64,000 nt of DNA from an uncultured Pelagibacteraceae bacterium (lineage in GTDB: Bacteria; Pseudomonadota; Alphaproteobacteria; Pelagibacterales; AG-422-B15). Position numbers and translations under genes: made by a program. Under the pieces are notes generated by a model, which was not told the DNA's origin, searched no databases, and worked only from the letters and a program-made list of their open reading frames with translations. The stretch is taken from positions 160,238 to 224,237 of the forward strand of contig CACNXQ010000001.1 in assembly GCA_902624455.1 (NCBI GenBank). Direction: 5' to 3'. Shown piece after piece: positions 45,804 to 64,000 of the stretch (position 1 is its first letter; each line of letters opens with the position of its first letter).

Positions 45804-45806
45804 TTA

Positions 45807-46964
45807 TTACCTCCTGATAGTTCTATAAATTGATATTAACAAAAATAAAAAAGTAAATGAAGTAATTGTATATATAAAGCCCATTGGGCCAAACATATCC
45901 ATAACTCTTCCACCAACAACTGGGCCAGCTAACGAACCGCATTCAAAAACCATAACAAGTATGGCCGTGGCTCCAGCAACTTGTGAAGCGCTATACCTTT
46001 CTCCCAACATTGTGAGGGATATTGCAAACAAACCGCTTGCAGCTCCGCCCCATATAAAACAACTTACTGCCATGACATAGAAATTGTCTAAGTAGAATGA
46101 AAAAATTATTGGACAAATAAAAGTTATAATAACTGCCGAGTTCATGAGGGTACGTTTATTAAATTTATCAAGCATCACTCCAATTATGGGCTGACATATT
46201 ACTCCACCAACTAGAGTGATTGTCACATATTGAAGGGCTATTTCTTGGGCAAATTGGTTTTTGATCATGAAAATTGGGAAAAAAGAAACAAACATTACAT
46301 CATCTAATCCACACAATATTGCTGCTCCAAATATTGTGGGAGCTGCAATGATTGTTGCTAAAACTGGTAAAGTTTTTTTATCTGGAAGTTTGGGATCATC
46401 AATTTCCATGGTGACTAACGGAATAATTGCTGCAAATGAAAGTGCTGAAATTACAACAAAAGGTAACCAACCTTCAATTCCGGTCATGTAGAGAACCATT
46501 GGCCCAAGTGCAAAACCAATTACAAATACAGTATTATATATGGTTACAATTTTTCCACGATTAGTGTCATCTGCCATTGATAACATCCATGTATCAAATG
46601 CATTCCAAGCTAACGCTCCAGCAAAACCAATTATAAACCTAATAATAAACCATGATGTTAAAGTATCAAAAATTGGAAAAGTGAAATAGAGAATTATTGT
46701 AAAAATTTGTGCAATGATTATAGATTTTGCTAAACCAATTTTATGAATAATTATAGGTGTTACTCTTACAAATAATATTACTGCGAGAGGTTGAGCAACA
46801 ACATTTAATCCTATTTCAGTATTACTATAACCTCGTGACTCTAAAATGAGTGAAAGAAGAGGTACAAGGGTTCCCAGCTTTATTCCTATAATTAAAGCGC
46901 ATAAGAATAATACAATATATGTTTTATAGTTATTACCTAAAAATGATTGAACGACACTTGTCAT
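45807..46964 (-). CDS. MFS transporter (YcaD-like)
   Basis: About 12 TM segments, RFIIG, RGK, GP..GG..MD motifs. Confidence 0.85.
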   Translation of the reverse strand: MTSVVQSFLGNNYKTYIVLFLCALIIGIKLGTLVPLLSLILESRGYSNTEIGLNVVAQPLAVILFVRVTPIIIHKIGLAKSIIIAQIFTIILYFTFPIFDTLTSWFIIRFIIGFAGALAWNAFDTWMLSMADDTNRGKIVTIYNTVFVIGFALGPMVLYMTGIEGWLPFVVISALSFAAIIPLVTMEIDDPKLPDKKTLPVLATIIAAPTIFGAAILCGLDDVMFVSFFPIFMIKNQFAQEIALQYVTITLVGGVICQPIIGVMLDKFNKRTLMNSAVIITFICPIIFSFYLDNFYVMAVSCFIWGGAASGLFAISLTMLGERYSASQVAGATAILVMVFECGSLAGPVVGGRVMDMFGPMGFIYTITSFTFLFLLISIYRTIRR

Positions 46965-47605
46965 GAAAATCTTTTTTCATCTACATAAATGCTTTTGAAA
47001 TATTTAAGTACTATGTTTCTACAGAATTGATTAGTATAAATTTTTGGATCAAATAATATTCTTTGCCATAAGCCATCAACCATAGAATGATAAGACTCAC
47101 TTATCTCTTTCGGTGTAAAATTTGTTTGTTTAGTTAGATGATTTAATTCTTTGATCAATTTTTCCATTTGATTTGAATATATTTCATCCTGGTGCTGACA
47201 AATGTTTAAATAAGATGGTCTGAATTTTACTTCACTGTAAAAAGCCATCCATACAGAGATTTTATTTCTGTTAGCAATTTTTTCACTAAAGTCGTTATCT
47301 AATATTCTTAATATGCGATCTATAGGATCTAAATTCTTTTCTTCAAAAATTGACTGCCATGAGCTCTTATATTCATCTGACAAATATTGAAGTGAACTTA
47401 ATAAGAGATTTTCTTTAGATTTAAATTTAAAATTAGCATATCCTTGTGATACCCCAGCCTTTTTTGCAACATGTGCAATTGTTGTATCAGCCAATCCTCT
47501 TGCGGCAATAGTTTCGATGGTTGCATCAATCAATTTCAAATGATTTGATGAGATTTGATCGTTTGCCTCAATAATTTCGTTGTTTTTTTCAGGGGCCGCT
47601 ATCAT
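46961..47605 (-). CDS. TetR-family regulator, BetI-like
   Basis: LIDATIETIAARGLADTTIAHVAKKAGVSQG HTH; C-terminal W.AFY.E...RP.Y and DGLW as in BetI-type regulators; start may be 47605 or 47623. Confidence 0.88.
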   Translation of the reverse strand: MIAAPEKNNEIIEANDQISSNHLKLIDATIETIAARGLADTTIAHVAKKAGVSQGYANFKFKSKENLLLSSLQYLSDEYKSSWQSIFEEKNLDPIDRILRILDNDFSEKIANRNKISVWMAFYSEVKFRPSYLNICQHQDEIYSNQMEKLIKELNHLTKQTNFTPKEISESYHSMVDGLWQRILFDPKIYTNQFCRNIVLKYFKSIYVDEKRFS

Positions 47606-47647
47606 CAAGAAAACAATATACAATCTTTAGCAACAAAGATAGTTTTG

Positions 47648-47677
47648 TATTGAATAATCATTCAATATGGATATCAT
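47648..47677 (+). promoter_or_regulatory. palindromic operator TATTGAAT-N4-ATTCAATA overlapping promoter TTGAAT-N16-TATCAT
   Basis: Perfect 8-bp inverted repeat at 47648-47667 in the divergent TetR/oxidoreductase spacer. Confidence 0.75.
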
Positions 47678-47705
47678 ATGTGTGATTTCAAATATTTATA
47701 GATTT

Positions 47706-49334
47706 ATGGCCAAAAATTCACATGATGTAATTGTAATTGGTGCAGGGCACAATGGACTGACTGCTGCGAGTTATATGGCAAAGGCAGGTTTAGATGTTCT
47801 TGTTCTTGAAAAAAATGAATGGATCGGTGGAGCAGCTGTGAGTAGAGAGCTATTTCCAGGCTGGAAGTATTCTAATTGTTCATATGTTTGTAGTCTTTTA
47901 AGACCAGAGATTATGAGAGACCTAGAGTTGTACAAATATGGACTCCAAGTTATTCCATACGAGGGTAGTGCAACTATGATGCGAAATGGCGATTATTACG
48001 CTCATTATCATGATCATGATATGACAATCAAATCTATCAGACGACATTCACTTAAAGATGCGGAGGCTTATGAAAGATATAGCCGGGATGTACTTAGACA
48101 ATGTAAAATCATTAAACCATTACTAAAGATGACACCTCCAGATTTAACATCGTTTAAACCGAAAGATATTTTTGGGGCACTCGAGTTTGCAAAATATTTT
48201 GCCGCTAAAGATGAGCTCGGAGGATTAGGTGAGAAAGAAATTTACGATACGATACGTTTTTACACAATGAGTATTAGAGACTATTTAGATGAATATTTTG
48301 AAAGCGATATTACTAAAGCCCATTTAGCTGGAAGTGCAATAATTGGAACTGCACTAGGACCTTGCTCACCAGGATCAGCGTATGTTTTACTGCACCATTA
48401 TATGGGAGAAGTTGATGGATCTGTAGGTTCATGGGGTTATTCAAGAGGTGGCATGGGATCAATTACTAAAGCAATGACAGGTTGTCTTAAAGCTCATGGT
48501 GGTGATGTTAAGCCAAATAATCAAGTAGCAAATGTAATTGTCAAGAATGGTAAAGCAATTGGAGTTGCAACAACCAATGGTGATGAATATTATGCAAAGA
48601 AAATTGTTTCCAATTTAGATGTAAAAAGAACCTTCCTCACAATTACAGAGGAAAAATCTCTTCCATCAGATTTTGTTCAAAAAGTAAAAAATTTTAAAAT
48701 TAGAGGTTCCTCAGGCAAACTAAATATTGCACTAGATGGATTGCCTGATTTCCCATGTATACCTGAAGGAGATCCGGGTGGGGGTGGAGATATGCATTTC
48801 ACTGAAAGCATCGAGGAAATGGAAGGTGCTTATGATGATTGGAAGAGAGGGGAATGGTCAAAAAATCCATATGTTGATATGTGTATACCGTCAAAAAGTG
48901 ATCCTACTATGGCCTCTCCTGGTAAGCATTATATGTCAGTGTTTATTCAATACGTACCGTTCAATTTAGCAAATGGAGGTTGGAATGAAGAACGAAAGCA
49001 AGCATTTGGTAAACATATAATTGAATGTATTTCTGCATTTTCACCGAACTTTAAAGATCTGATAAATCACTATGAAGTAAGGACACCGCTAGACTTACAT
49101 AATGAAGTTGGGCTTACCGAAGGTAATATATTTCAAGGCGAATTGACCATGGACCAACTCATGTTTAATAGACCTGTAACCGGATATGCCCAGTACAGAA
49201 CGCCTCTAAAAAATATGTACATGTGCAGTTCTTCAACACACCCTGGAGGTGGAGTAATGGGAGCGCCTGGCGCAAATGCTGCACGAGAACTACTTTTAGA
49301 TATGAATATACCTCAAAAAGGCAACTATTATTAA
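47706..49334 (+). CDS. PYROXD2 / phytoene-dehydrogenase-like FAD oxidoreductase A
   Basis: VIGAGHNGL, GGAAVS.E..PG, SYVCSLLRPEI, AYVLLHHYMG, GGMG, GNIFQG, THPGGGVMGAPG; start MAKNSH at 47706. Confidence 0.85.
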   Translation: MAKNSHDVIVIGAGHNGLTAASYMAKAGLDVLVLEKNEWIGGAAVSRELFPGWKYSNCSYVCSLLRPEIMRDLELYKYGLQVIPYEGSATMMRNGDYYAHYHDHDMTIKSIRRHSLKDAEAYERYSRDVLRQCKIIKPLLKMTPPDLTSFKPKDIFGALEFAKYFAAKDELGGLGEKEIYDTIRFYTMSIRDYLDEYFESDITKAHLAGSAIIGTALGPCSPGSAYVLLHHYMGEVDGSVGSWGYSRGGMGSITKAMTGCLKAHGGDVKPNNQVANVIVKNGKAIGVATTNGDEYYAKKIVSNLDVKRTFLTITEEKSLPSDFVQKVKNFKIRGSSGKLNIALDGLPDFPCIPEGDPGGGGDMHFTESIEEMEGAYDDWKRGEWSKNPYVDMCIPSKSDPTMASPGKHYMSVFIQYVPFNLANGGWNEERKQAFGKHIIECISAFSPNFKDLINHYEVRTPLDLHNEVGLTEGNIFQGELTMDQLMFNRPVTGYAQYRTPLKNMYMCSSSTHPGGGVMGAPGANAARELLLDMNIPQKGNYY

Positions 49335-52050: not shown

Positions 52051-52080
52051 GTTTCCTTTAAAATACAACAAAAGTTCGTC

Positions 52081-52110
52081 ATTGAACGCTCATTCAATTT
52101 AATATATAAT
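52081..52110 (+). promoter_or_regulatory. second operator ATTGAA-N6-TTCAAT overlapping promoter TTGAAC-N17-TATAAT
   Basis: ATTGAACGCTCATTCAAT at 52081-52098; TATAAT at 52105-52110; ATG at 52116. Confidence 0.75.
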
Positions 52111-52115
52111 AGGGT

Positions 52116-53519
52116 ATGCCAAAATCTCAAACCAGCAAGCCATTAGATAATCTCAAAAATAGTTTAGATGATAGAATTCTCTATCCCTGGCAGTATTTAG
52201 AATATCTAGGCGAAGATGACAGAACATTCATTGAAAAATCTGAAGGAATTTATCTATTTGATAAGACGGGTCGAAAACTTATTGATGGACCTGGAGGAAT
52301 GTGGAATGTAAATGTTGGCCATGGTGTAAAAGAAATTGCTGATGCTGTGTATGCTCAAATAAGAAGTATGCCATATGCCAGTCCTTTTACAGAATCAACA
52401 GAAATTGCTTACAATTATGCATCTCGTTTAGTTAAGTATGCGCCGGGTGATTTAAAAAGAGTTTTTTTTACTTCTGGAGGATCTGCAGCAGTAGACTCTG
52501 CCTTAAGATTTGTAATGTTCTATAACAATGTTAGAGGATTAAGAGACAAGAAACAGATTATATCAAGGCATGATGCCTACCACGGAAGCACATATCTTGG
52601 GGCATCATGCTCAGGAAAAGAGCGAGATAAAAATAATTTTGACTTTGCTAATGACATTGTTCACCATTTGTCATCACCGAATCCATTTCGTAAGCCAGAT
52701 GATATGAGCGATGAAGATTTTTGTGACTTAAAAGTCAAAGAACTTGAAGATAAAATTATTGAGTTAGGTCCAGAAAAAGTTGCTGCATTTATTGCTGAAC
52801 CAATACTCGCATCAGGTGGGGTAATTGTTCCACCTAAAGGTTATCAGAAAAAGACGTTAGAAGTCTGTAGAAAATATGATGTCATCTATATTTCAGATGA
52901 AATAGTTACAGGTTTTGGGAGATTGGGACATATATTTGCTTCAGAAAACTACTTCGATATCCAACCGGACATTATTCTTTTAGCTAAAGGAATTACCTCA
53001 GGTTACGTGCCATGTGGTGCCGTTGTAATTTCAGAGCGACTAATGTCACAATTAGATCATAAGGAAAAAGTTATCTTTTCAAATGGCTTCACTGACTCAG
53101 GTCACCCAGTTAGTATGGCAGCTGCTACAGCTACACTTGATTATATCGAAAAAACAAACTTACTTGATCATGTGAAAGAAGTAGGCCCTTATCTACAGAG
53201 TAGACTTCAAGAATTAACTGACTTACCAATTGTTGGCGAAGTACGTGGTGAAGGTTTAATGGCTGCTGTTGAATGTGTAATCAGTAAAGAAAAAAAGGAT
53301 CCGTTGAATCTTCAATATGAGATTGCTTCAAGAATTAATTCCCATTGTCAAAACTTAGGACTGATTGTTAGACCTCTCTTTAATACATGCGTGATGTCAC
53401 CGTCATTAATAATTACTAAGGATCAAATTGACGATTTAGTGAGTATTCTTAGAAAAGGTATCGAGCTAGCTACAAAAGATATAAAAGAAGAAGGTCTGTG
53501 GTCTGCTGAAGCGAATTAA
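52116..53519 (+). CDS. class III PLP aminotransferase (omega-amine/putrescine:pyruvate type)
   Basis: DGPGGMWNVNVGHG, SGGS, YHGST, AFIAEPI, DEIVTGFGRLG, AKGITSGY. Confidence 0.9.
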   Translation: MPKSQTSKPLDNLKNSLDDRILYPWQYLEYLGEDDRTFIEKSEGIYLFDKTGRKLIDGPGGMWNVNVGHGVKEIADAVYAQIRSMPYASPFTESTEIAYNYASRLVKYAPGDLKRVFFTSGGSAAVDSALRFVMFYNNVRGLRDKKQIISRHDAYHGSTYLGASCSGKERDKNNFDFANDIVHHLSSPNPFRKPDDMSDEDFCDLKVKELEDKIIELGPEKVAAFIAEPILASGGVIVPPKGYQKKTLEVCRKYDVIYISDEIVTGFGRLGHIFASENYFDIQPDIILLAKGITSGYVPCGAVVISERLMSQLDHKEKVIFSNGFTDSGHPVSMAAATATLDYIEKTNLLDHVKEVGPYLQSRLQELTDLPIVGEVRGEGLMAAVECVISKEKKDPLNLQYEIASRINSHCQNLGLIVRPLFNTCVMSPSLIITKDQIDDLVSILRKGIELATKDIKEEGLWSAEAN

Positions 53520-54764
53520 ATGATTGAATTCCAACAGCTTTTAGAAAATTACCAAGAAGGTAAAGCACTTCCACAACAATTTTACACAAACGAAAAAATT
53601 TTTTCAGAAGAGATGAAAAGAATTTATTTCAAACAATGGTTAATGGTTGATCATGTATCAAGAATACCTAACCCTGGTGATTACTTTGTTTTTGAAGCTG
53701 AAAAAGAGTCCATAATTATCATTAGAGGAAGAGATGAAAAAATACGTGCATTTTATAATGTATGTACTCATCGTGGATCAAGGATATGTCTTGAAGAAGA
53801 AGGCACAAAAAAATTACTTGTATGCCCTTATCATGCATGGAGCTTTTCAGCTGAAGGAGATCTAAAGGCAGCAAGATATATGCCTGAGGATTTCAAAAAA
53901 GAGGAATGGGGTCTAAAAAAATGTCACCTAAAGATACACGAGGGATTGATATTTATTAATCTCTCTCTTGAGGAACCAATGGACTTCGACGAATTCATTG
54001 GTCCACTAAAGGAAATGCTTGAATTTCACCAAACAAGTAAAGCTCGAATTGCAACTAGAAAAAAATATCCAACGGAAGCAAATTTCAAACTAGTTCTTGA
54101 AAACTTTCAAGAGTGTTATCATTGTGGCCCTGCTCATCCTGAGCTTTGTTCAATTCATGAAAAAGACTGGGTTTATACAATGGGAGCTGGCGTAAATACA
54201 GCACCTGAAAAAGATACAAAAGAATACTTGGACAAAATACAGCCTTGGATTGAGGAATGTAAGAGTAAGGGCGTACCATCTGATACATACCTTGAATCTG
54301 AAGATGGTCTAAGAAAAGGTTTAAATCGTTATGTTGACAGAACTCCGATTGGAAATGGTCACTTGTCACAAACTAAAGATGGTAAACCGGCATCATCATT
54401 AATGGGTAAATTTAGTGAATTTGACGGGGGTCTCACACAAGTAAGTTTTAATCCTTTTGGATGTTGTTATTTAACAAATGATTTTGTCGTAATGTTTATT
54501 TTTAAACCAGTATCAATTGATTATTCAGAAGTTGAACTGGTTTGGCTAGTTGGTGATCAAGCTGAAGAAGGTAAGGACTATCAATCTGACGATGTTAGTT
54601 ACATGTGGGATGTAACAACACAAGCAGACACAACTATAATTGAAAATAACCAAAAAGGTGTTTATTCACGAGCATTTGCTCCTGGAATATTATCTGAAAA
54701 CGAGTCTGCAGTTACATATTTTTATGATTGGTATTTTACCAACATGAAAATGGGATCAAACTAA
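53520..54764 (+). CDS. Rieske non-heme iron oxygenase alpha subunit (GbcA/Stc2-like quaternary-amine demethylase group)
   Basis: NVCTHRG...CPYHAW Rieske ligands, ENFQECYHC..AH, WDVTTQAD..IIENNQKG. Confidence 0.9.
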   Translation: MIEFQQLLENYQEGKALPQQFYTNEKIFSEEMKRIYFKQWLMVDHVSRIPNPGDYFVFEAEKESIIIIRGRDEKIRAFYNVCTHRGSRICLEEEGTKKLLVCPYHAWSFSAEGDLKAARYMPEDFKKEEWGLKKCHLKIHEGLIFINLSLEEPMDFDEFIGPLKEMLEFHQTSKARIATRKKYPTEANFKLVLENFQECYHCGPAHPELCSIHEKDWVYTMGAGVNTAPEKDTKEYLDKIQPWIEECKSKGVPSDTYLESEDGLRKGLNRYVDRTPIGNGHLSQTKDGKPASSLMGKFSEFDGGLTQVSFNPFGCCYLTNDFVVMFIFKPVSIDYSEVELVWLVGDQAEEGKDYQSDDVSYMWDVTTQADTTIIENNQKGVYSRAFAPGILSENESAVTYFYDWYFTNMKMGSN

Positions 54765-54842: not shown

Positions 54843-56198
54843 ATGAAACAACTTTACGACAAAGCTATCTATGATTTTGACAATCCTGTATCAAGCTATT
54901 GGGAAGAAATAAGTCATCCAGATCAAAACTCATATCCAAAATTAAAAGGAGATCAACAATGTGATATTGCTGTCATAGGCGGTGGTTTCACTGGCTTATC
55001 AACTGCATATCATTTAGCAAAACTCTACCAAAGAGATGTAAGATTACTAGAAGCTGGTCATGTTGGTTGGGCTTCCTCAGGTCGTAATGCAGGGTTTGTT
55101 TGTTTACCCGCAACAAAGCTTTCAATTCAAACTCTATTTAAAAGATATGGAATTGATGAAACTAAAAAGTTCTTTGCATCACAAGTTGAGGGCATGGATA
55201 TATTAGATTCAATTATTAAAGATCATAGCATTGAATGTGAGCAAATTGGAGATGGGAATTTAGATGTTGCTCATAGTCCCCATAGTTGTGATGGCTTGAA
55301 AGAATGGGGAAATGATTTAAAAAAATATTTTGGCATTAATACTCGTTGGATTCCAAAAGAAGAGTTTGATGAGTCAGGTCATCAATCTACAGAACAATTT
55401 GGAGCCGTTTTTATGGAGTCAGGTTTTGCTATGAACCCTCTTGCATTTCTTGGAGGATTTGCGAAGGCAACTGTAGAGGCAGGAGCGGTATTACATGGAC
55501 ATTCAAGGGTTAAAAAATGGGAAAGAAATGGCAAACATAGATTAATAACTGATGAAGGTTCATTGACAGCAAACCAAGTTGTGGTTGCAACAAATGGTTA
55601 CACTGATGAGTCGCTACACCAGAGTTTTGCTAACCGTATGGTGCCTGTTTTATCAAACATAATTGTTACAAGGGAGATGAGCGAAGATGAATTTAATCTT
55701 CAAAATTATAAAACTTTAAACCCTATTTGTAATAGTAGGGAAATACTCTATTACTATAGAAGAATGCCATCAAATAGAATGCTCTTTGGAACTAGAGGAG
55801 ATACTTACGGTGATGATCAAAGTGCAAATAAAATGAAGGATTATATGACTCAGAAATTTAGAGGTGTATTTCCTTCTTGGAATGATGTTGAAATTTCACA
55901 TTATTGGCGCGGTACGGTTGTTATGAATAGAGATCTAACTCCAGCATTTGGAAGTTTAGATGATGATCAAACTGTCCACTTCTCATATGGCTATTCAGCA
56001 AATGGAAACAATACAACAATTTATTGTGGTAAAAAGCTTGCTGAAATGATTTGTGAGTCAAACAGTGGTTCAACAAATATATCAGAGATATATAGAGGTT
56101 TATCACCTAAAATACCTTTTCCATTTCTCAGACTTTGGTACCTGAGGTTGTACCTTTGGTATTCAAAACTTCGGGATAAAAATAAAAAAGAATTATAA
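54843..56198 (+). CDS. FAD-dependent amine oxidoreductase (PuuB/DadA-like)
   Basis: SYW, IGGGFTGLS, GWASSGRNAG, VVATNGY, YYYR, GYS.NG. Confidence 0.85.
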   Translation: MKQLYDKAIYDFDNPVSSYWEEISHPDQNSYPKLKGDQQCDIAVIGGGFTGLSTAYHLAKLYQRDVRLLEAGHVGWASSGRNAGFVCLPATKLSIQTLFKRYGIDETKKFFASQVEGMDILDSIIKDHSIECEQIGDGNLDVAHSPHSCDGLKEWGNDLKKYFGINTRWIPKEEFDESGHQSTEQFGAVFMESGFAMNPLAFLGGFAKATVEAGAVLHGHSRVKKWERNGKHRLITDEGSLTANQVVVATNGYTDESLHQSFANRMVPVLSNIIVTREMSEDEFNLQNYKTLNPICNSREILYYYRRMPSNRMLFGTRGDTYGDDQSANKMKDYMTQKFRGVFPSWNDVEISHYWRGTVVMNRDLTPAFGSLDDDQTVHFSYGYSANGNNTTIYCGKKLAEMICESNSGSTNISEIYRGLSPKIPFPFLRLWYLRLYLWYSKLRDKNKKEL

Positions 56199-56199
56199 T

Positions 56200-56228
56200 T
56201 TGCAACCCATAGTTAGATAACATACTAT
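56200..56228 (+). promoter_or_regulatory. putative leaderless promoter TTGCAA-N17-TACTAT for the ABC permease genes
   Basis: -10 ends 7 nt before ATG 56236; no SD present. Confidence 0.55.
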
Positions 56229-56235
56229 TTTTTGG

Positions 56236-57129
56236 ATGATTAATTGGTGGAATAGTCTTTATTCAAGAAGTGATAATGCAAAAGCTTACGTATTATTATC
56301 CCCTGCTCTAATTCTTGTAATACTTGGTATGGCCGTCCCATTATTGGCGGTATTTTCTGTAAGCTTTACTACTCAAGCATCATTTGAGATTGACTATACC
56401 CCAACTTTTGATCGCTATATTGAGTTCATGGATACGAGTTCTAGAACAGGAAACGTATTAACAACTTTGCTGGGTCGCTCTATATCTATTTCCTTTTTAG
56501 TTGCCTTTTTTACACTTATCACAACCTACCCTGTTGCATACTATGTCGCATTTTATGTGAAGAAGAACAAAATGCTGTGGTTAGTATTAATGACTTTACC
56601 TTTTTGGACTTCATATTTACTCAGAGTGTTTGCATGGAAATTAATTCTAGGCCACAAAGGAGTCATAAATGCAAGCTTAATGACTGTAGGGTTCATTGAT
56701 GAGCCTCTTGGATTTCTTATGTACAGTCAAACAGCAGTTGTCATTACTCTTGCGCATGCCTGGGCAGCTTTTGCATTGCTGCCTCTCTATGTAAGTTTAG
56801 AAAAAATTGATTATTCTCTCATAGAAGCATCGCACGATCTTGGATGCACAAAATTTGAAACATTCTGGAGAGTTGTGTGGCCATTAAGTTTACCGGGTGT
56901 AATAGGAGCTGTTCTGATTATTTTTATTCCCACTGTTGGTGATTATGTAACGCCAGCTTTAGTTGGAGGCACTGAAGGTAGGATGTTATCTAATATGATA
57001 CAAACTTATTTTGGTCGGGCTAATAATTTTCCATTAGGTGCGGCTTCAGCTGTAATCATGTTGATTAGTGTCGCATTGGTTACAATTGCTGTAAATGTAG
57101 TAACAAAAAGACTAACGCAGAGGTTATAG
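56236..57129 (+). CDS. polyamine-type ABC transporter permease (PotB/PotH-like)
   Basis: YPVAY, PFWTSYLLR, EAS.DLG (EAA loop), P.SLPG, P.LVGG. Confidence 0.9.
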   Translation: MINWWNSLYSRSDNAKAYVLLSPALILVILGMAVPLLAVFSVSFTTQASFEIDYTPTFDRYIEFMDTSSRTGNVLTTLLGRSISISFLVAFFTLITTYPVAYYVAFYVKKNKMLWLVLMTLPFWTSYLLRVFAWKLILGHKGVINASLMTVGFIDEPLGFLMYSQTAVVITLAHAWAAFALLPLYVSLEKIDYSLIEASHDLGCTKFETFWRVVWPLSLPGVIGAVLIIFIPTVGDYVTPALVGGTEGRMLSNMIQTYFGRANNFPLGAASAVIMLISVALVTIAVNVVTKRLTQRL

Positions 57130-57132
57130 AAA

Positions 57133-57945
57133 ATGAAACTTAACGAAAATAGAACATTATATATTTACGTTCTTATTTATTTTGGTTTTCTTTATATACC
57201 AGTAATGTTCCTTCCTATATTTTCTTTCAATCAAGGAATTCATATGGCATTTCCATTGCAGGGATTTTCAACTGAGCATTACGAGGATATGTGGAATTCA
57301 CCGAAATTGTTTGATGCATTATGGAATAGTATTTATGTAGGAGTTGTCTCAAGTTTAATGGCAACAATGCTCGCTTTTTTTGCAGCAAAAGCGTTTACAA
57401 AGTATAAGTTTCGCGGCCAAGCTTTGTCATATGGTGCTATTCTTACGCCCTTCTTAATTCCTGAAATTATTCTTGCAATTGCTCTATTGGTTATATGGGT
57501 ATCTGTTGGACTACCTCTAGGACTTACACCCATAATTATTGGTCATGTTCTTTTTTGTACTCCTTTTTGCATGATTATACTTATCGCAAGAATGGAGGGG
57601 TTTGATAATAATCTTGAGGAAGCATCGAGAGATCTGGGAGAAGGAGTATTCATGACGTTTTGGAGGGTTTCATTCCCAATTTTACTTCCAGGTTTAATTG
57701 CTGCTTTTCTTCTTGGCTTTATAATTTCATTTGACGAATTTTTATTAGCAATGTTCCTTCAGGGCTCAGACCAAACATTGCCTATATATATGTGGGGACA
57801 ATTGAGATTTGCTAGAAGGTTGCCACATGTATTGGCGCTTGGTGCAGTAATTATAGTTGCCACTAGCCTTGTTGTAATGTTAGCTTATTGGCTCAGGAAC
57901 GTAGGACAACCTCAGGAGAAGCAAGATTTAACATTTAAAATATAA
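57133..57945 (+). CDS. polyamine-type ABC transporter permease (PotC/PotI-like)
   Basis: FLYIP, FSFN, EEASRDLG, SFDEF, TLP. Confidence 0.9.
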   Translation: MKLNENRTLYIYVLIYFGFLYIPVMFLPIFSFNQGIHMAFPLQGFSTEHYEDMWNSPKLFDALWNSIYVGVVSSLMATMLAFFAAKAFTKYKFRGQALSYGAILTPFLIPEIILAIALLVIWVSVGLPLGLTPIIIGHVLFCTPFCMIILIARMEGFDNNLEEASRDLGEGVFMTFWRVSFPILLPGLIAAFLLGFIISFDEFLLAMFLQGSDQTLPIYMWGQLRFARRLPHVLALGAVIIVATSLVVMLAYWLRNVGQPQEKQDLTFKI

Positions 57946-59030
57946 TGAGCGAAAATTTTATAGATATCAGAAATATTTCTAGACATTTTGGAACAGTTAA
58001 AGCTGTTGATGATGTTTCCTTTTCTATTAAACAGGGTGAGTTTTTTAGTCTTTTGGGACCGAGTGGATGCGGTAAAACGACATTGCTCCGTTTACTAGCA
58101 GGATTTGAATCTGCAAATCAAGGTGAAATTTTTATTGATGGTGTTGACGTTACCACAATGCCTCCAAACTTGAGACCAACTAATATGGTTTTTCAAAATT
58201 ATGCAATTTTTCCACATATAAATGTAAAAAAGAACATCGAATTTGGAATGAGAAAGGAAAAACTCTCAAAGCAAGAACTTGAAAATAGAGTTCAAGAGGT
58301 TTTATCGTTGGTTAAACTAGAAGGTTACGAAGAAAGATTTTCTAATCAGCTTTCTGGAGGTCAAAGACAAAGAATTGCATTAGCAAGAGCGCTTATTAAA
58401 AGACCAAAAGTTTTACTACTAGATGAACCTTTGGGCGCACTCGATAAAAAATTAAGAGATGAAATGCAGATTGAATTAAGAAATCTTCAAAAAGCCGTAG
58501 GTATTACATTTGTTTTCGTTACACACGATCAAAGTGAGTCAATCAGTATGTCAGATAGAGTTGCAGTTATGAATGAAGGTCAAATTCAACAAATATCAGA
58601 TCCACATGATCTATATTATAATCCACAAAATATATTTGTAAGTGATTTCATAGGAACAACTAATTTTTTATCTTCATCTACAGGAAGCAGTAATGGAGAA
58701 AATATTATGGTTAAAATTGATCAAATTGGCGAATTTAGTATCAAGAATAAACTGAATATACCTGAAAATGATAACGAAACAGTAGTTTCTATAAGACCTG
58801 AAGCTATTGTCTTATCTCCATCTCCGATTGACAAAGGAGATATTGTAATGGAGGGAACAATTGAAAATTCCTCTTATTATGGAGAATTAACAAGTTTTTA
58901 CGTAAGAGTTCAGGGTGCTGAAAATCCACTTATTGCGTCCTCACAACGGTTTGATAATAATTCATTTGAAGGAAACAAGTGTTACTTATCTATTAATTTT
59001 GAGGATATAAACCTGCTAAAAAAAGAATAG
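57945..59030 (+). CDS. polyamine-type ABC transporter ATPase (PotA/PotG-like)
   Basis: GPSGCGKTT, VFQNYA, LSGGQ, LLLDEPLGALD, VTHDQ, TOBE-like C-terminus. Confidence 0.93.
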   Translation: MSENFIDIRNISRHFGTVKAVDDVSFSIKQGEFFSLLGPSGCGKTTLLRLLAGFESANQGEIFIDGVDVTTMPPNLRPTNMVFQNYAIFPHINVKKNIEFGMRKEKLSKQELENRVQEVLSLVKLEGYEERFSNQLSGGQRQRIALARALIKRPKVLLLDEPLGALDKKLRDEMQIELRNLQKAVGITFVFVTHDQSESISMSDRVAVMNEGQIQQISDPHDLYYNPQNIFVSDFIGTTNFLSSSTGSSNGENIMVKIDQIGEFSIKNKLNIPENDNETVVSIRPEAIVLSPSPIDKGDIVMEGTIENSSYYGELTSFYVRVQGAENPLIASSQRFDNNSFEGNKCYLSINFEDINLLKKE

Positions 59031-59052
59031 CCTGCCAATAAATGACAGGCTA
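59016..59052 (-). terminator. intrinsic terminator of the substrate-binding protein gene
   Basis: Minus strand TAGCCTGTCA-TTTAT-TGGCAGGCTA hairpin followed by TTCTTTTTTT. Confidence 0.7.
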
Positions 59053-59076
59053 CTCAAAAAAGTTAATTAATTTTTT

Positions 59077-60192
59077 TTAAACAACTCCTGCAGACCATTC
59101 AGCCCATCGAGCTTCAATATAGTCTGTTACTTCAGGTTTTGCTTCATTACTGAAGTTACCATTCTGTAAGTGAGTCATTGGATCTAATGCAAGTCCACGT
59201 TCAATCTTATCCGCTTCTGAAATTGCATCGTATCCAACTTTATTTACATGGCCGTATCCATATTCTAAAAGCATAAATGCAGAACATTCTGGAGATTGCG
59301 CAGCATTAATTACTTCGTATGCAACATCTAAATTTGCTCCTTTAGGAATACAGAAACCACACATCCAAGTTAAGCTACCTTCTTTTGGAGAGATCATTGG
59401 GAAACCAGTGTTCCATGAACTTTCATTCCATACGACTGCAGCATGAACTTCTTCAGACATCATTGCTTCTTCAAGAGAAGTTGGGTCTGGACTAAGAAGT
59501 CTTATGTTTGGTCTTAATTTTTCCATAGGACCATCAAATAAACGATCAACGTCCTCAATGGTTAAATCTTCCATTTTTGTAACATCGATCCCCATTCCAA
59601 TCATGATCAAGTATAAAGAGTCTGCAGCACTATCAAGCATTGCAACTTTACCCTCTAGTCTTTTATCAAACAACATCATGATTGTTTCTTTACCTGGATC
59701 AGTATTTATCCAAGGTTGTGCATCTTTGTTTACTATTATTGAAGTATCTCCAAATTCACATGGTGCAAACCAGTGCTGGTCTTTAAAGTATGTTGTAGGC
59801 ATTTTCTTAGAGTCTTCGAATAAATTATTCCAGTGAACACATCTTGATGTATCAATTGGCTGTATAATATCAGCTCTATGCCATCTAAATGGATCTGCAT
59901 TACATGGGTGTGCAGTATCACACTGGAATCCAGCCCTTATTTTTTGAAGCATTGACTCTGAATCATCAGCTACAGTAAACTCTAATCTATCAGGATCCAT
60001 TCCTGGATACATGTCAGGTATATCGTATCCTGACCAAGTTAATACTCTTGCGTTATCTGCAGCAAAAGCACTGTTTGCGCCGAATTGAGTAGTTGCTACT
60101 AGACCTGCAGCTCCCATCGCCTTCATAAGCTGACGTCTATTAAGCTTCCTGCCCATAATTTGTTTAGCTATATTGCTTTTTGGTTTAGACAT
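59077..60192 (-). CDS. PotD/PotF-like periplasmic binding protein with Tat signal
   Basis: NRRQLMK Tat motif, LTWSGY, IQPIDTS, PKEG..W..G; GAAGGGGAG SD. Confidence 0.87.
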   Translation of the reverse strand: MSKPKSNIAKQIMGRKLNRRQLMKAMGAAGLVATTQFGANSAFAADNARVLTWSGYDIPDMYPGMDPDRLEFTVADDSESMLQKIRAGFQCDTAHPCNADPFRWHRADIIQPIDTSRCVHWNNLFEDSKKMPTTYFKDQHWFAPCEFGDTSIIVNKDAQPWINTDPGKETIMMLFDKRLEGKVAMLDSAADSLYLIMIGMGIDVTKMEDLTIEDVDRLFDGPMEKLRPNIRLLSPDPTSLEEAMMSEEVHAAVVWNESSWNTGFPMISPKEGSLTWMCGFCIPKGANLDVAYEVINAAQSPECSAFMLLEYGYGHVNKVGYDAISEADKIERGLALDPMTHLQNGNFSNEAKPEVTDYIEARWAEWSAGVV

Positions 60193-60234
60193 AATGACTA
60201 ACTCCCCTTCATATTTATTAATTAACTATAAAAA

Positions 60235-60262
60235 ATTGTACACCTATGTGGGACTTGGTCAA
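60235..60262 (-). promoter_or_regulatory. putative promoter TTGACC-N16-TACAAT for the binding-protein gene
   Basis: Reverse complement of 60235-60262 reads TTGACCAAGTCCCACATAGGTGTACAAT. Confidence 0.55.
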
Positions 60263-60269
60263 TATATTA

Positions 60270-61766
60270 TCAGCCAATTAAAGGCCATTTTTCCTTACTA
60301 TTTAACCATGGATCGAGTTTTTCAAAATTATAACCACCTTGAAAGACTTTTTCGTCACAAAAAGCTTTGGAAACTATTTGAATTCCTGTTGGAACACCTA
60401 AGTTTGAAAAGCCAGAGGGTACAGCTAAAACTGGAAGTCTGCCTAGAATATTGAAGGGATAGCTCATACACCAAGATACATCGGGTCCTTCCTGTACCTT
60501 ATTATTAATAATTACTTTATCTTTTTTTAGATCCATATCTGCTTTTACAGACGGCAAACAATTCGTAGGACAAACTAATATATCATATTCCTCAAGAATC
60601 GGCGAAATCTCCAAATACATTTCACCTGCAACATTCGCACAGTCACGCGATGTATACCCCAAGTAGGCACCCAGTTCATCAGAGTAGATTTTTTTATCTT
60701 CAGCAATCGCCTTAAAATGTAAATCTGATAATTTTGCATACATTTGTGCATATTCAGTCATTTCTTGCCTTTCATCTTCTGGTACTTCAGCGAGAGTTCT
60801 AAAAAATGCTCCGCCGGCATAATGACTGTAACAAGTAGAGTCAACCTCCTCTTTTTTCCAATTGAGTTTTATTTCATTAACACTAGCTCCCAAAGTTTTA
60901 AATTTTTCGACTGCTTCAAGTGTATTTTTCTCAACTGTTTCATCAACTTCGAAAAAACCCAAATCAAGTGAGTATGCTATTTTCCAACCCTTTATATTTT
61001 CATAATCAAGGGAAAGTGTTTTTTTTGGACTTATTGTTGTTATATCATTTGGGTGTGGTCCACACATTACATTCTGCATTAGCGCACAGTCAGACACAGT
61101 TCTAGCCATTGGTCCAACTACGCAGTAATGATCAAGATTAAATGGATGAGCAATTGGATTCCTCCCATACGGTGGTTTGTAGCCAACAATACCACATGCA
61201 GATGCAGGTATTCTTATTGATCCACCGATATCACTTCCAGTTGCAATTGTAGTCATTCCAGCTGCTAAAGATGCTCCACTACCACCAGAAGATCCTCCCG
61301 GTGAAAAATTTAAATTCCATGGATTCTTGCTAACACCGTTTAATATTGAATGAGTAAATGACGTTAAGGAAAATTCAGGACATGTAGATCTTGCATGGAT
61401 AATAGCGCCAGAGTTAACTATTCTTTCAACATCAATATCGGTATGTCTTGATAAATTATTTTTAAACATCTGTGATCCCATTGTGTTTATCTGTCCATCT
61501 ATCGAAACTTCGTCTTTAATTGCTGTCGGCAAACCATCAAGAGGCAACGTTAATGCATCACTAAAATATTTATCTTCAGACTTTTTTGCTTCTTTTAATG
61601 CTTTTTCAAAATATAATTGATTGAACGCATTAATCTCGGAATTGATGCTTTCAATTCTTTTTATTATTTCCTGTAATAATTCAACGGGGGAGATTGATTT
61701 ATTCTTGAACTTTTTTATTGCCTCATTAGCTGAAAGGTAACAAATCTCTAAGTCTGCAGTATTCAT
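60270..61766 (-). CDS. amidase signature family enzyme
   Basis: AIKD (Lys), PGGSSGGS, GSDIGGSIRIPAS (Ser-cisSer-Lys triad). Confidence 0.92.
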   Translation of the reverse strand: MNTADLEICYLSANEAIKKFKNKSISPVELLQEIIKRIESINSEINAFNQLYFEKALKEAKKSEDKYFSDALTLPLDGLPTAIKDEVSIDGQINTMGSQMFKNNLSRHTDIDVERIVNSGAIIHARSTCPEFSLTSFTHSILNGVSKNPWNLNFSPGGSSGGSGASLAAGMTTIATGSDIGGSIRIPASACGIVGYKPPYGRNPIAHPFNLDHYCVVGPMARTVSDCALMQNVMCGPHPNDITTISPKKTLSLDYENIKGWKIAYSLDLGFFEVDETVEKNTLEAVEKFKTLGASVNEIKLNWKKEEVDSTCYSHYAGGAFFRTLAEVPEDERQEMTEYAQMYAKLSDLHFKAIAEDKKIYSDELGAYLGYTSRDCANVAGEMYLEISPILEEYDILVCPTNCLPSVKADMDLKKDKVIINNKVQEGPDVSWCMSYPFNILGRLPVLAVPSGFSNLGVPTGIQIVSKAFCDEKVFQGGYNFEKLDPWLNSKEKWPLIG

Positions 61767-61830
61767 ATGTTTTCACTTAATTATTTTATTTTAATTTATC
61801 AATTAATTAAATATATTAAAATCACAGTTT

Positions 61831-62925
61831 ATGAATATTAATAGTCAATTAAAAAATATTATAACTTCACAGAAAGTCGATGAAGGTTTCCATCAGTTAT
61901 TTTTTACTGATGAAAATCTATTTAAATTAAGTTTTGAAGCTATTTTTAAGAAACAATGGGTATTTATTACTCATTATTCTCATTTTTATGACAATGATGA
62001 ATTCATTTATAATTTAACTGATGGTTATGTTATTGTAAAAAAAATTGGTGATAAGTTAGAAGCGTCTCATTCAAATAATACAACAACTTGTCACACTAAA
62101 ATTTTTGAACATTTAGTTTTTATAAACTTATCAGAAAACCCGTATGATTTTGAAGAGTTTATTAAGCCTCTAGAGCCATATATAAAAATGCACGGTTTAA
62201 AAAAAGGCAAAATTGCCTTTCAAAAAGACTACGTATTCAATGCATCTCATCTTGCCACAATCCAGAATTTCAAAGAATGTAATCATTGCTGGGGAGGAGA
62301 ATTTTCTCATAAAGATTATTTAGATGTTCATGGATCAACTTATTGTAATTCTTACGGGGCTGGTGTTGGATCCGGTATTGAGTCTGAAGAATTTAATGAA
62401 CGATTAGAAAAGTGGACACAGGATACAAGAAATAAAGGTTTGTTTGTTGATGAATTTTCTGAGAATGATCCAAAGTTTTTTCGTGTTGCTGAAAGAACAC
62501 CACTAAAAGAAGGAATACTTTCTGAAACAAGGGACGGATCATATAGTTGCACGTCTCTGATGGGAGATTTCAAAAAGTTCGGAGCTGACGGGGGCTATAC
62601 TGCTGTTGGGTTTTCGCCATTTAATAGTTTTGTGGCGAATAATGAGTTCTCTATTTTGTTTGTATTTTCACCAATATCCAAAAATAAAACAATCGTTACG
62701 CAAATGTGGGTAACAGATGTTGAAGCTGAATGTGATATCGATAAAATGATATTTCTTTGGGACAGGACAACCTTGGAAGATTCTCAATTATGTGAGATGA
62801 ATCAAAAAGGAATTGAAAGTATCGCATATTCAGAAGGTGTATATGGAAGTCTTGAAAAATCTTTAATACTGTACCAAAAATTTTATTTGGACCATTTACA
62901 AGATCACATAAGAAGCCGGGCTTAA
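61831..62925 (+). CDS. ring-hydroxylating oxygenase alpha-subunit homolog lacking the Rieske cluster segment
   Basis: Aligns with 53520-54764 (FKKQW, CH.KI.E.L.FINLS, NF.EC.HC, GAGV, RTP, SLMG.F, DGG, WD.TT..D, NQKG) but has no CxH...CxxH. Confidence 0.8.
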   Translation: MNINSQLKNIITSQKVDEGFHQLFFTDENLFKLSFEAIFKKQWVFITHYSHFYDNDEFIYNLTDGYVIVKKIGDKLEASHSNNTTTCHTKIFEHLVFINLSENPYDFEEFIKPLEPYIKMHGLKKGKIAFQKDYVFNASHLATIQNFKECNHCWGGEFSHKDYLDVHGSTYCNSYGAGVGSGIESEEFNERLEKWTQDTRNKGLFVDEFSENDPKFFRVAERTPLKEGILSETRDGSYSCTSLMGDFKKFGADGGYTAVGFSPFNSFVANNEFSILFVFSPISKNKTIVTQMWVTDVEAECDIDKMIFLWDRTTLEDSQLCEMNQKGIESIAYSEGVYGSLEKSLILYQKFYLDHLQDHIRSRA

Positions 62926-62940
62926 AACATTTTTTCACCA

Positions 62941-64000
62941 ATGGATACAGCAAAAATCAGTGAACTAGATCAAGCTTTACGTAAGTATAAAAACATAAAA
63001 TATGTAGACGCCATTTTTACAGATCTTTGTGGGTATATTAGGGGAAAAAGGTTTCCAGTTAATGAGGCTGATAAAATTTTCACTGATGGAGTATTATTAC
63101 CTTTCTCAGCATTTTATTTAGATGTTTTAGGAGGTGTAACAAATACTCTAAATCTTGGATTTACAGATGGTGACCCTGATGGTGTACTTGTTCCAATAAA
63201 TGACACTTTAAAAATAGTACCATGGGATAAAAAAGTTCTTCAAGTTCTCATTTCCATGAGAAGCTACCAAGAAAAGTGGGGGGTTATTAAAAAACCAGCT
63301 GAAGTTGATCCAAGAAATATTTTAAAAAAAATAATAAAAAAATTTGATGGTACTGGATTAAAGCCTGTAGTAGCTATTGAGCTCGAATTTTACTTACTCG
63401 ATAAAAAAAGAAACAAAGAAGGCAAACCTGTTCCTGCTAAAGGTGTCAGTAAAACAAATGTATATGGAATACCTGACCTTGATATATTTGGCAGGCTTTT
63501 TGATGAAATTAATGAAAATTGTAAAAAACAAGGTATACCAGCTACGACTGCATCAAGTGAATTTGCAGCTGGACAATATGAAATAAATTTAAAACATACT
63601 GAAAACTTATTAAAGGCAGCAGATGACGCTGCCTTACTTAGAAGGATTATAAAAGAAACGAGTGCAAAACACGGTTATGAAGCTACATTTATGGCAAAAC
63701 CATTTTTGGACGAAACAGGAAGTGGCATGCACCTTCATGTTTCTGTTTATGATCAAAAAGGAAAAAATATATTTGCCTCACCTAATAGATATGGAAATAG
63801 TAAACTGAAGAATGCTATAGCGGGATTACAATCAAATTTTTATGACAGCTTTCCGATATTTATACCAAACCAAAACGGATATCGAAGAATACAAACTAGA
63901 AATTTCGTACCGGTAAACACAAGTTGGTCATGGAATAGAAGGGATGCATCCCTTAGAATACCTGCGGGTTCTAAGAATGCTAAAAGAGTAGAGCACAGGG
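62941..64000 (+). CDS. glutamine synthetase family gamma-glutamyl-amine ligase (PuuA/PauA-like), truncated by window end
   Basis: Manual translation MDTAKISE...DLCGYIRGKR, DGDPD, ELEFYL, EFAAGQYEINL, FMAKPF...GSGMHLHVS, SLRIP, RVEHR; no stop before 64000, so absent from the ORF track. Confidence 0.88.
   Translation, partial: MDTAKISELDQALRKYKNIKYVDAIFTDLCGYIRGKRFPVNEADKIFTDGVLLPFSAFYLDVLGGVTNTLNLGFTDGDPDGVLVPINDTLKIVPWDKKVLQVLISMRSYQEKWGVIKKPAEVDPRNILKKIIKKFDGTGLKPVVAIELEFYLLDKKRNKEGKPVPAKGVSKTNVYGIPDLDIFGRLFDEINENCKKQGIPATTASSEFAAGQYEINLKHTENLLKAADDAALLRRIIKETSAKHGYEATFMAKPFLDETGSGMHLHVSVYDQKGKNIFASPNRYGNSKLKNAIAGLQSNFYDSFPIFIPNQNGYRRIQTRNFVPVNTSWSWNRRDASLRIPAGSKNAKRVEHR

Follow-up and report, generated by a model that had tools for sequence, protein, structure and literature searches.

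Our analysis of a 64,000-nucleotide stretch of DNA from an uncultured Pelagibacteraceae bacterium (assembly GCA_902624455.1, contig CACNXQ010000001.1; C1:160238-224237), referred to here as the window, concerned a block of putative amine-catabolic genes that begins beside rsfS and runs past the window end. The block, about 28.7 kb in all (C1:205579-234322), is a trait of the whole family to which this member of the Pelagibacterales belongs, rather than a strain island or a variable insert, and the arrangement of its genes exceeds chance. We propose, at roughly even chances, that it is a conserved catabolic unit controlled by a repressor, and that it serves one class of cationic N-methylated ammonium compound, which is finally converted to a primary omega-amine. 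SAR11-type cells are dominant in ocean surface waters, and their uptake decides the fate of dissolved organic nitrogen and one-carbon units. The block distinguishes the whole family from its sister family, and the identity of its substrate would extend the list of currencies between phytoplankton and oligotrophs and supply a reaction for the PYROXD2 family of flavoproteins.

The source genome is 1.32 Mb in size, 99 % complete and of about 34 % G+C. Gene content was taken from a listing of open reading frames and from Pfam and NCBIfam scans of the window proteins, and for the downstream part from the genome contig.

Conservation and control of the block

No gene of the block is better conserved than FAD1, which encodes the first of two paralogous flavoproteins. 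A search of 60 family genomes recovered it from 45, among them 12 of the 13 of high quality, at 84–93 % identity and with FAD2 adjoining. When genomes sampled from the order were compared, 17 of the 19 that belong to the family carried FAD1 (E<=1e-100) and 16 carried the GcvT-like protein (E<=1e-60), as against 0 of 131 sister-family genomes for either. Loci were compared from 43 family genomes (6 + 37), with gene order followed as far as the contigs reach. The common order, seen in 43 related loci, was MFS-TetR-FAD1-FAD2-GcvT-AT3-Rieske-DAO-potBCA-SBP-amidase-paralog-GS-(AlaX)-ECH-EamA, where AT3 is a class-III aminotransferase, SBP the solute-binding protein, paralog an oxygenase without a Rieske cluster, GS a glutamine-synthetase-like (GS-like) ligase and ECH an enoyl-CoA hydratase. 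The full set from FAD1 to the GS-like gene was present in 31 of the 32 loci that extend to the latter, the exception being G010, which is without the amidase gene; the other 11 of the 43 loci end before the GS-like gene at contig ends. The AlaX-like gene was absent from G003, G008 and G010. The MFS gene is 70–89 % identical in relatives and lies beside the TetR gene, and the GNAT gene adjoins both in all six relatives of the first comparison. One of these 11, a 5.5-kb contig of G016 (C27:1-5498), carries FAD1-FAD2-GcvT followed on the same strand by a TetR fragment and the MFS gene; the cause could be a rearrangement or faulty assembly.

These comparisons bear on the original prediction, made from the letters of the window, of an uncharacterised amine-demethylation island abutting the core rsfS/rlmH genes. 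All of the genes that it named were recovered where it had placed them by open reading frames, Pfam and NCBIfam, and they occur together across family genomes, so that the prediction, which was to fall if the genes did not co-occur elsewhere, stands on this point. As a variable insert, the island does not agree with the presence of FAD1 in three quarters of the family genomes (45/60). The block does meet rsfS in this genome, but the GNAT and MFS genes, both part of the conserved block, intervene before the TetR gene. The contact is also peculiar to this genome, as proB-proA-nadD-rsfS-rlmH-ctpA is contiguous, with nadD and rsfS as neighbours, in all five relatives examined. The regulator, which had been described as a BetI-like repressor, is accompanied by a conserved palindrome at the FAD1 start beside the TetR gene, in keeping with control by a repressor.

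Beyond the family, an alignment search with FAD1 returned 80 loci, and the trio of FAD1, FAD2 and the GcvT-like gene was adjacent in most of them. The trio loci span Gamma- and Alphaproteobacteria, Acidobacteriota, Gemmatimonadota, Chloroflexota and Actinomycetota. In the proteobacterial loci the trio is flanked by a TetR gene, an AT3 ortholog (48–52 % identical), Pot permease and ATPase genes and the gene of a related binding protein. The core of the block thus consists of the BetI-like TetR, FAD1, FAD2, the GcvT-like protein, AT3 and the Pot-type importer, and on this distribution it long predates the family. Genes of the GS-like and acyl-CoA dehydrogenase types lie near the trio in two gammaproteobacterial loci (L029 and L036). 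In one Leisingera locus the trio is joined by genes for a BCCT transporter and for a ferredoxin-domain reductase of the FNR type, and in a Haliea locus (L039) by genes for a PurU-like formyltetrahydrofolate deformylase, an enoyl-CoA hydratase, a Rieske oxygenase, two transaminases and a TetR-GNAT fusion. Cultured carriers include Leisingera sp. JC11 (L086) and Mesorhizobium sp. B2-4-3 (L032). Because accessory genes recur beside the trio in such distant loci, they are non-random neighbours. In the Haliea fusion (L039:17672-18793) a BetI-type TetR and a GNAT domain form one protein beside the trio, which would tie the GNAT protein of the block to regulation or to the ligand.

The TetR regulator passes the TetR_C_6 model (46 vs a cut-off of 27 bits) and falls below both BetI equivalog models (105 vs 201 and 101 vs 118). 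The palindrome TTGAAT-N4-ATTCAA, here with perfect 8-nt arms at 47648-47667, was found in exact form in 56 of 159 loci, which correspond to 40 family genomes including this one; in the G007 and G009 loci it is not exact. A copy with one mismatch stands before AT3, and in G008 an exact copy occupies the equivalent place (L023:15511-15526). Within the window, two matches with at most one mismatch compare with 1.47 expected, which is not above chance; the weight of the palindrome lies in its positional conservation in relatives, and these are not independent of one another.

Near-identical DNA was detected in 15 runs of at least seven studies (marine metagenomes), and two metatranscriptome runs hold 44–46 % of the sampled words. 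RNA-library contigs from three studies lie on the block at 98–99 % identity and span four gene junctions (FAD1/FAD2, FAD2/GcvT, AT3/Rieske and paralog/GS-like). In the two RNA runs with better cover, depth is greatest for the contig that carries the binding-protein gene (58871-60196), at 85 and 160; depth of RNA contigs cannot rank genes, and these figures were therefore not used as evidence. Nor was anything concluded from the bins that lack cover in runs X19 and X20.

Enzymes and importer

The stop and start codons of the trio overlap as TAATG at both the FAD1-FAD2 and FAD2-GcvT junctions, which amounts to two translational couplings. Reading of the junctions places the true start of FAD2 at ATG 49334, not 49223, and that of the GcvT-like gene at ATG 50851. 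A FAD2-GcvT fusion, as listed in open frames of 920 aa, was ruled out, since an in-frame stop and a new ATG at the junction make the two separate genes. FAD2 is about 30 % identical to FAD1 and is always next after it in the loci. Both match the Amino_oxidase and CrtI-family models along their length, whereas the DAO model matches only a 40-residue Rossmann stretch. The FAD1 family comprises 2016 representative clusters at E<=1e-30. The homology of FAD1 to animal PYROXD2, an orphan mitochondrial flavoprotein, is full-length (38 % identity to the oyster protein over 544 aa, E 8e-122, by BLASTP); FAD2 matches the same protein at 30 % (E 2e-60), and the representatives of the oyster and mayfly PYROXD2 clusters match FAD1 at E 7.7e-111 and 2e-108. 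Among curated models, the GcvT-like protein comes closest to the C-terminal half of trimethylamine N-oxide demethylase, at 277 bits against a cut-off of 1100.

In humans, PYROXD2 is among the strongest genes for metabolite quantitative trait loci, and its locus is the strongest such locus for N-epsilon-dimethyl-lysine, at P 5e-181 to 4e-214 (10.1101/2023.09.26.559021). It has also been tied to N2-acetyl,N6,N6-dimethyllysine and to urinary trimethylamine (PMC13352909). A literature search, conducted largely without subscription journals, found no enzymatic activity for PYROXD2 or its bacterial relatives; for PYROXD2 this refers to the 30 papers listed out of 196 that mention it. The kinship with PYROXD2 and the methyl-lysine genetics, taken with the chained GcvT-fold protein, suggest that the trio would fit a flavin- and folate-linked N-demethylase of separate subunits. 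Dimethylglycine dehydrogenase (DMGDH), sarcosine dehydrogenase (SARDH) and heterotetrameric sarcosine oxidase (SoxBDAG) likewise join a flavin amine oxidoreductase to a GcvT-fold folate site that captures one-carbon units. Their flavoprotein is of the DAO family with the GcvT domain joined to it, whereas in the block there are two paralogs of the CrtI / amine-oxidase / PYROXD2 fold and the GcvT-fold protein has its own, translationally coupled gene. Two other demethylation neighbourhoods are present outside the block (C2:173165-188021 and C3:166523-169530), with three DAO-GcvT fusions (805–831 aa), a 1013-aa open frame resembling SoxA and a pair of BHMT-like genes; the 1.3-Mb genome has eight GcvT-family matches.

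The Rieske protein has the motif CTHRG..CPYHAW (CXH..CXXH), the bridging E198 and the iron ligands H201, H206 and D364, and its ENFQECYHC aligns with DNYMECYHC of CntA, in which E205 is the bridging Glu (PMC7948474). It scores 302.5 bits on the GbcA equivalog model, for which the cut-off is 670. Its best solved relatives are 3n0q (250 bits) and Stc2 (231 bits), both over the full length, while CntA aligns to the N-terminal half only (147 bits). Phe196, invariant in eight aligned sequences, stands at the position of CntA Tyr203, which is Asn in Stc2 and 3n0q. An aromatic side chain at this site forms a pi-cation contact with the quaternary nitrogen and marks clade Va, which comprises CntA, the choline monooxygenases and OxyBAC, whereas the demethylases of clade Vb carry Asn (PMC7948474). 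Judged by these residues, the protein belongs to the quaternary-amine group (group V) and mixes marks of clades Va and Vb; it has the bridging Glu, the two-His-one-carboxylate iron site and the aromatic residue in common with CntA, yet is closer overall to Stc2 and 3n0q. Another Rieske oxygenase gene, with an open frame of 387 aa, is found at C3:76729-76983.

The paralog of this enzyme lacks about 50 aa that contain both Cys/His pairs, and retains the equivalents of F196, E198, H201, H206 and D364. The Rieske domain PF00355 was found in none of the 23 cluster representatives of the paralog clade and in all 46 more distant matches, and the clade is separate in the tree, on a long branch, with support of 100/100. 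Retention of the bridging Glu suggests that the paralog would still be supplied with electrons by an adjacent Rieske centre, possibly within a mixed trimer. A Rieske-less oxygenase at the equivalent place in G010 (L019:6290-7366, genus g3) groups with a different, Rieske-bearing lineage, and for this reason the Rieske cluster may have been lost twice.

The importer passes one curated model, the PotA subfamily TIGR01187 (364.7 bits vs a cut-off of 355.6); the PotB and PotC scores fall below theirs (183 vs 348 and 170 vs 326), and the binding protein reaches 44 bits on the PotD model, for which 582 are needed. Escherichia coli PotD holds spermidine by the ionic ligands E36, D168, E171 and D257 and the aromatic residues W34, Y37, W229 and W255 (PMC11414716). 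In an alignment of the binding protein to E. coli PotD, the four acidic ligands correspond to G55, S188, D191 and C278, of which one remains acidic, and the aromatic box is retained, with W34, Y37, W229, W255 and Y293 of PotD corresponding to W53, Y56, W255, W276 and Y313. The same pocket signature was seen in 19 of 19 aligned relatives, though two variants of the protein are only about 40 % alike. R19 and R20 of the twin-arginine leader, C97 and C278 are invariant in 45 homologs. C97 and C278 occupy the PotD positions S83 and D257, the first of which we take to be a ligand contact as well.

The fold, transporter architecture and aromatic box are those of PotABCD and PotFGHI, from which the binding protein differs by its twin-arginine leader, its two invariant pocket cysteines and the Gly, Ser and Cys in place of E36, D168 and D257. 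Its predicted structure (predicted local distance difference test score 88.7) superimposes on VcPotD1 with template modelling (TM) scores of 0.75/0.86, and the top Foldseek matches were VcPotD1, PotF and PotD (TM 0.71–0.75 by query length); as the PotD/F fold family includes proteins that bind gamma-aminobutyric acid and opines, the fold match does not name the ligand. A Pfam search found four further SBP_bac_8 proteins in the genome, and tblastn with the binding protein matched only itself. Elsewhere in the genome, a second PotD-like protein retains the equivalents of E36 and D257. Since only one of the four acidic spermidine ligands is kept, a classical polyamine is an unlikely ligand of the binding protein, and the pocket would be suited to one cationic, probably methylated, head group. 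A possible parallel is SAR11_1336, a 'PotD' of SAR11 that binds glycine betaine (2 nM) and dimethylsulfoniopropionate, not polyamines (PMC11485210).

The transporter module occurs in two forms within the family, a split that the flanking enzymes do not show. The binding protein of this genome is 68 % identical to that of G013 (L127) and 38–43 % identical to eight others compared; for potB, potC and potA the identities are 75–79 % to G013 and 65–71 % to the rest. The module looks like a swapped cassette that kept the same pocket residues.

AT3 passes PRK07036 (651 bits vs a cut-off of 618) and has 3i5t as its best solved relative (437 bits), and the second transaminase, downstream of the window, is SpuC-like and passes PRK07480 (743 vs 510). 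The remaining enzymes are less closely matched. The best curated models for the DAO protein score 155 and 147 bits, far under their cut-offs, its best solved relative is glycine oxidase (50 bits), and the PuuB model gave no match for it in the NCBIfam table. The amidase reaches 306 bits against 506 and has GatA and an aryl acylamidase as solved relatives. The GS-like protein scores 228 on GlnA (cut-off 429), 221 on the type III model (470) and 194 on gamma-glutamylputrescine synthetase, PuuA (650), and the C26 peptidase scores 141 on PuuD (266). Names such as 'PuuA-like' and 'PuuB-like' are, on these scores, valid at the superfamily level only. Every score of a curated name was below its cut-off for the acyl-CoA dehydrogenase, enoyl-CoA hydratase, GS-like, AlaX-like and C26 proteins; an identity of the acyl-CoA dehydrogenase as glutaryl-CoA dehydrogenase, which would have hinted at lysine, was therefore rejected as unsupported.

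Proposed pathway and alternative explanations

In the pathway that we propose, the Tat-exported PotD-fold protein would catch the cationic head group in its aromatic box, and the PotABC-type importer would bring the compound into the cell. The Rieske monooxygenase would then attack the quaternary or tertiary nitrogen with O2, most likely as a first N-demethylation. FAD1 and FAD2 would oxidise remaining N-methyl groups while the GcvT-fold protein hands the one-carbon unit to tetrahydrofolate, and the DAO-family oxidase may remove the last methyl group. The freed primary omega-amine would be transaminated by AT3, perhaps also by the second transaminase, and the acyl-CoA dehydrogenase and enoyl-CoA hydratase would complete the breakdown of the carbon chain. 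The GS-like ligase, Rieske-less oxygenase, C26 hydrolase, amidase and GNAT protein could form a side branch for conjugated forms or toxic intermediates, acting by gamma-glutamylation or acylation. The aniline and isopropylamine routes, which use gamma-glutamylation, provide the analogy; in the aniline system the GS-like ligase works with a Rieske oxygenase, although the oxygenase that adjoins the ligase in the block has no Rieske cluster, beta subunit or reductase. The BetI-like TetR would repress the block at TTGAAT-N4-ATTCAA until the compound is present.

Several observations weigh against this proposal. With Phe196, the Rieske protein carries the residue typical of clade Va, whose members cleave C-N bonds or hydroxylate, in place of that of the demethylating clade Vb, and the first step may for that reason not be a demethylation. 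No PF00175 or PF00970 domain was found in the 99 %-complete genome, compared with 11 and 9 of 14 control genomes, which indicates that a GbcB/CntB-type reductase for the oxygenase is missing; a ferredoxin of 113 aa is encoded elsewhere in the genome. The link between PYROXD2 and methyl-lysine is a human genetic association and not enzymology, carried over at 38 % identity, and the pocket was mapped from alignments at about 20 % identity. By Pfam, the block has no Aldedh-family gene, leaving the transamination product without a taker. All curated equivalog models fell below their cut-offs, apart from the PRK07036 and PRK07480 transaminases and the PotA subfamily model. The core alone stays constant in loci from other families, with relatives of the Rieske, GS-like, enoyl-CoA hydratase and acyl-CoA dehydrogenase genes in some loci, and within one family the conserved order may reflect shared descent. 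The RNA-library contigs prove neither transcript, strand nor operon, and DNA carry-over is possible.

As to the substrate, our guesses run from epsilon-N-methylated lysines, which we rank first, through omega-trimethylammonio acids (C3-C5 betaines) to N-methylated di- or polyamines. A bolder form of the proposal, which we regard as improbable, is that the block constitutes a complete route for epsilon-N-methylated lysine, or a similar omega-(tri/di)methylammonio acid, released by eukaryotic plankton. The PYROXD2-type pair and its GcvT partner would then be a new heteromeric folate-linked N-demethylase, and the Rieske-less oxygenase would be fed by its paralog's Rieske centre in a mixed trimer. 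If this were true, the orphan human PYROXD2 would gain a reaction, the demethylation of N-epsilon-dimethyl-lysine, and the ocean a new sink for methylated nitrogen.

The same literature search, largely without subscription journals, found no paper on the cluster and no matching pathway, and 10.64898/2026.06.26.734754 and PMC8437039 had no bearing on it. Together with the curated models, which yielded no characterised match besides two generic transaminases and the PotA subfamily, this agrees with the description of the pathway as uncharacterised in the original prediction. Its demethylation theme has gained from the quaternary-amine-group Rieske protein, from the GcvT-fold protein chained to two PYROXD2-family flavoproteins and from the PurU-like gene of the Haliea locus. 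Its polyamine side has been weakened, for reasons set out below, and its PuuA and PuuB labels hold at the superfamily level only. Methyl-lysine, which it had named as a plausible marine substrate, receives indirect support from human PYROXD2 genetics, while the substrate is, as it had stated, still not readable from the sequence.

An alternative to a single pathway is a super-operon of independent amine-catabolic modules for different substrates, which in a streamlined genome share a neighbourhood only. One module would unite the trio, a transaminase and the importer, and the others would be the Rieske enzyme, a set for gamma-glutamylation that resembles Pau, and the amidase. We consider this unlikely as a full account, although it may be partly true. 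The recurrence outside the family of the core alone (TetR, trio, AT3 and Pot genes), with other genes in some loci, is what it would lead one to expect, and so are the two transaminases, the transcription directions within the block, of which there are at least five, the amidase and AlaX-like genes missing from the relatives named above, and the presence of house-keeping genes (pdxH, pdxA, SLT and djlA-like) within the moved block. It is harder to reconcile with the fixed order that extends to the GS-like gene in 31 of 32 loci, with the second palindrome before AT3, which suggests common control of at least two units, and with the reappearance beside the trio of GNAT, enoyl-CoA hydratase, second transaminase and Rieske genes in the gammaproteobacterial L039 and of GS-like and acyl-CoA dehydrogenase genes in L029 and L036.

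A glycine betaine route, which we judge rather improbable, would make the Rieske protein GbcA, the trio a dimethylglycine/sarcosine demethylase and the DAO protein a sarcosine/glycine oxidase, all under BetI-like control and served by a betaine-binding 'PotD'. GbcA is indeed the best curated model for the Rieske protein (302 bits), but at less than half of its cut-off, and the genome has no GbcB-type reductase. The BetI-type domain of the regulator, the glycine oxidase as best solved relative of the DAO protein, the BCCT transporter beside the trio in Leisingera and the nanomolar affinity of SAR11_1336 for glycine betaine (2 nM; PMC11485210) are consistent with such a route. The known GbcAB and Stc2 chains also resemble the block in that a quaternary-amine Rieske oxygenase is followed by flavin/folate methyl removal, with a BetI/TetR-type repressor and a dedicated importer. 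However, a PYROXD2-type pair with a separate GcvT-fold protein stands in place of the DgcAB or SoxBDAG of GbcAB-DgcAB-SoxBDAG, and the canonical betaine set (DAO-GcvT fusions, SoxA-like frame and BHMT-like genes) is found elsewhere in the genome. Unlike the glycine betaine and proline betaine chains, the block adds an omega-transaminase, for which glycine betaine creates no need, yet AT3 lies beside the trio in most proteobacterial loci.

Classical polyamine use, with putrescine or spermidine imported by PotABCD and degraded by Puu/Pau enzymes and a transaminase while the demethylase-like genes are bystanders, is very unlikely. It draws on the names, since the PotA subfamily model passes and PotB, PotC and PotD are the best-scoring names for the other components, on a binding-protein fold that matches PotD and PotF, and on the presence in one block of a GS-like ligase, a DAO-family oxidase, a C26 hydrolase and a SpuC-like transaminase (PRK07480), the first three being likewise joined in the Puu/Pau pathway. 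However, these three counterparts lie below the Puu cut-offs (PuuA at 194 vs 650 and PuuD at 141 vs 266, with no PuuB match), and the block is without a PuuC-type aldehyde dehydrogenase. In each of the 19 aligned binding proteins, other residues stand in for three of the four acidic spermidine ligands, whereas the other PotD-like protein of the genome retains two of them. This account also leaves no role for FAD1 and the GcvT-like gene, which are the most conserved. A further caution follows for marine omics, in which 'polyamine transporter' labels can mislead (cf. PMC11485210).

We likewise give little credence to cleavage of the C-N bond as the first step, in which a CntA-like Rieske enzyme would free trimethylamine or dimethylamine, the trio would demethylate the small methylamine onto folate and the transaminases would act on the other part: the aromatic clade Va mark at Phe196 (PMC7948474) and the tie between the PYROXD2 locus and urinary trimethylamine (PMC13352909) speak for it, but over its full length the Rieske protein resembles Stc2, a demethylase, more closely (231 bits) than it does CntA, which aligns to the N-terminal half only (147 bits), no GmaS-type equivalog was found (221 vs 470 for the GS-like protein on the type III model), and methylamine cannot be transaminated, yet AT3 is the most constant neighbour of the trio.

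Gene inventory and genomic position

The features in the window part of the block (45342-64000) are collected in Table 1. Past the window end, the order is AlaX-like, enoyl-CoA hydratase, EamA, DjlA-like, PdxH, SLT, PdxA, LysE, C26 peptidase, acyl-CoA dehydrogenase and second transaminase, over about 10 kb up to nadD.

Table 1. Features of the block within the window, with positions counted from the first letter of the window
Feature	Position	Strand	Evidence and remarks
GNAT acetyltransferase	45342..45803	-	Pfam Acetyltransf_1, 71 bits; first gene of the block on the rsfS side
MFS transporter	45807..46964	-	Pfam MFS_1, 119 bits; 4-nt overlap with the TetR gene
TetR regulator with BetI-type C-terminal domain	46961..47623	-	TetR_N 41 bits, TetR_C_6 46 bits; divergent from FAD1
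Palindrome TTGAAT-N4-ATTCAA, candidate TetR operator	47650..47665	.	Last base 2 nt upstream of the FAD1 ATG
FAD1, PYROXD2-family flavoprotein (CrtI / amine-oxidase fold)	47667..49334	+	Amino_oxidase and Rossmann-motif matches
FAD2, flavoprotein paralogous to FAD1, 505 aa	49334..50851	+	Start codon shares a base with the FAD1 stop codon (TAATG)
Stand-alone GcvT-fold folate-binding protein, 399 aa	50851..52050	+	GCV_T 201 bits, GCV_T_C 44 bits; TAATG with the FAD2 stop
Second copy of the palindrome, one mismatch	52082..52097	.	19 nt upstream of the transaminase start
Class-III (omega) aminotransferase AT3	52116..53519	+	Aminotran_3, 280 bits
Rieske non-haem iron oxygenase, quaternary-amine group (GbcA/Stc2-like overall)	53520..54764	+	Rieske 63 bits, Ring_hydroxyl_A 76 bits
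DAO-family FAD oxidoreductase ('PuuB-like' in the original prediction)	54843..56198	+	DAO, 187 bits
ATP-binding cassette (ABC) importer: potB-like 56236-57129, potC-like 57133-57945, potA-like 57945-59030	56236..59030	+	BPD_transp_1 twice, ABC_tran
PotD/PotF-fold solute-binding protein with twin-arginine leader	59077..60192	-	Aromatic box; Cys/Gly/Ser replacing three acidic ligands
Amidase-signature amidase	60270..61766	-	Amidase, 284 bits
Oxygenase paralog without Rieske cluster	61831..62925	+	Ring_hydroxyl_A only; catalytic iron site retained
Glutamine-synthetase-like amide ligase	62941..64000	+	Gln-synt_C; incomplete in the window, full length 456 aa

In the five relatives examined, the block is flanked by an ABC-transporter gene on one side and, on the other, by genes found on contig C9 of this genome, whereas here it is inserted, with its 28.7 kb, between nadD and rsfS. 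It is also circularly permuted, the SLT-to-AT3b part standing after pdxH and not, as in relatives, before the GNAT gene. The permutation looks as if the block had been excised as a circle and re-inserted at a different point. No integrase, tRNA or repeat was noticed at the joints, of which no repeat search was made. The former site of the block on C9 (C9:7900-15000) now carries another cassette, composed of genes for a luciferase-like monooxygenase, a thiamine pyrophosphate enzyme, an AA_synth-family protein, an alpha/beta hydrolase, an aldehyde dehydrogenase and a UPF0114 protein.

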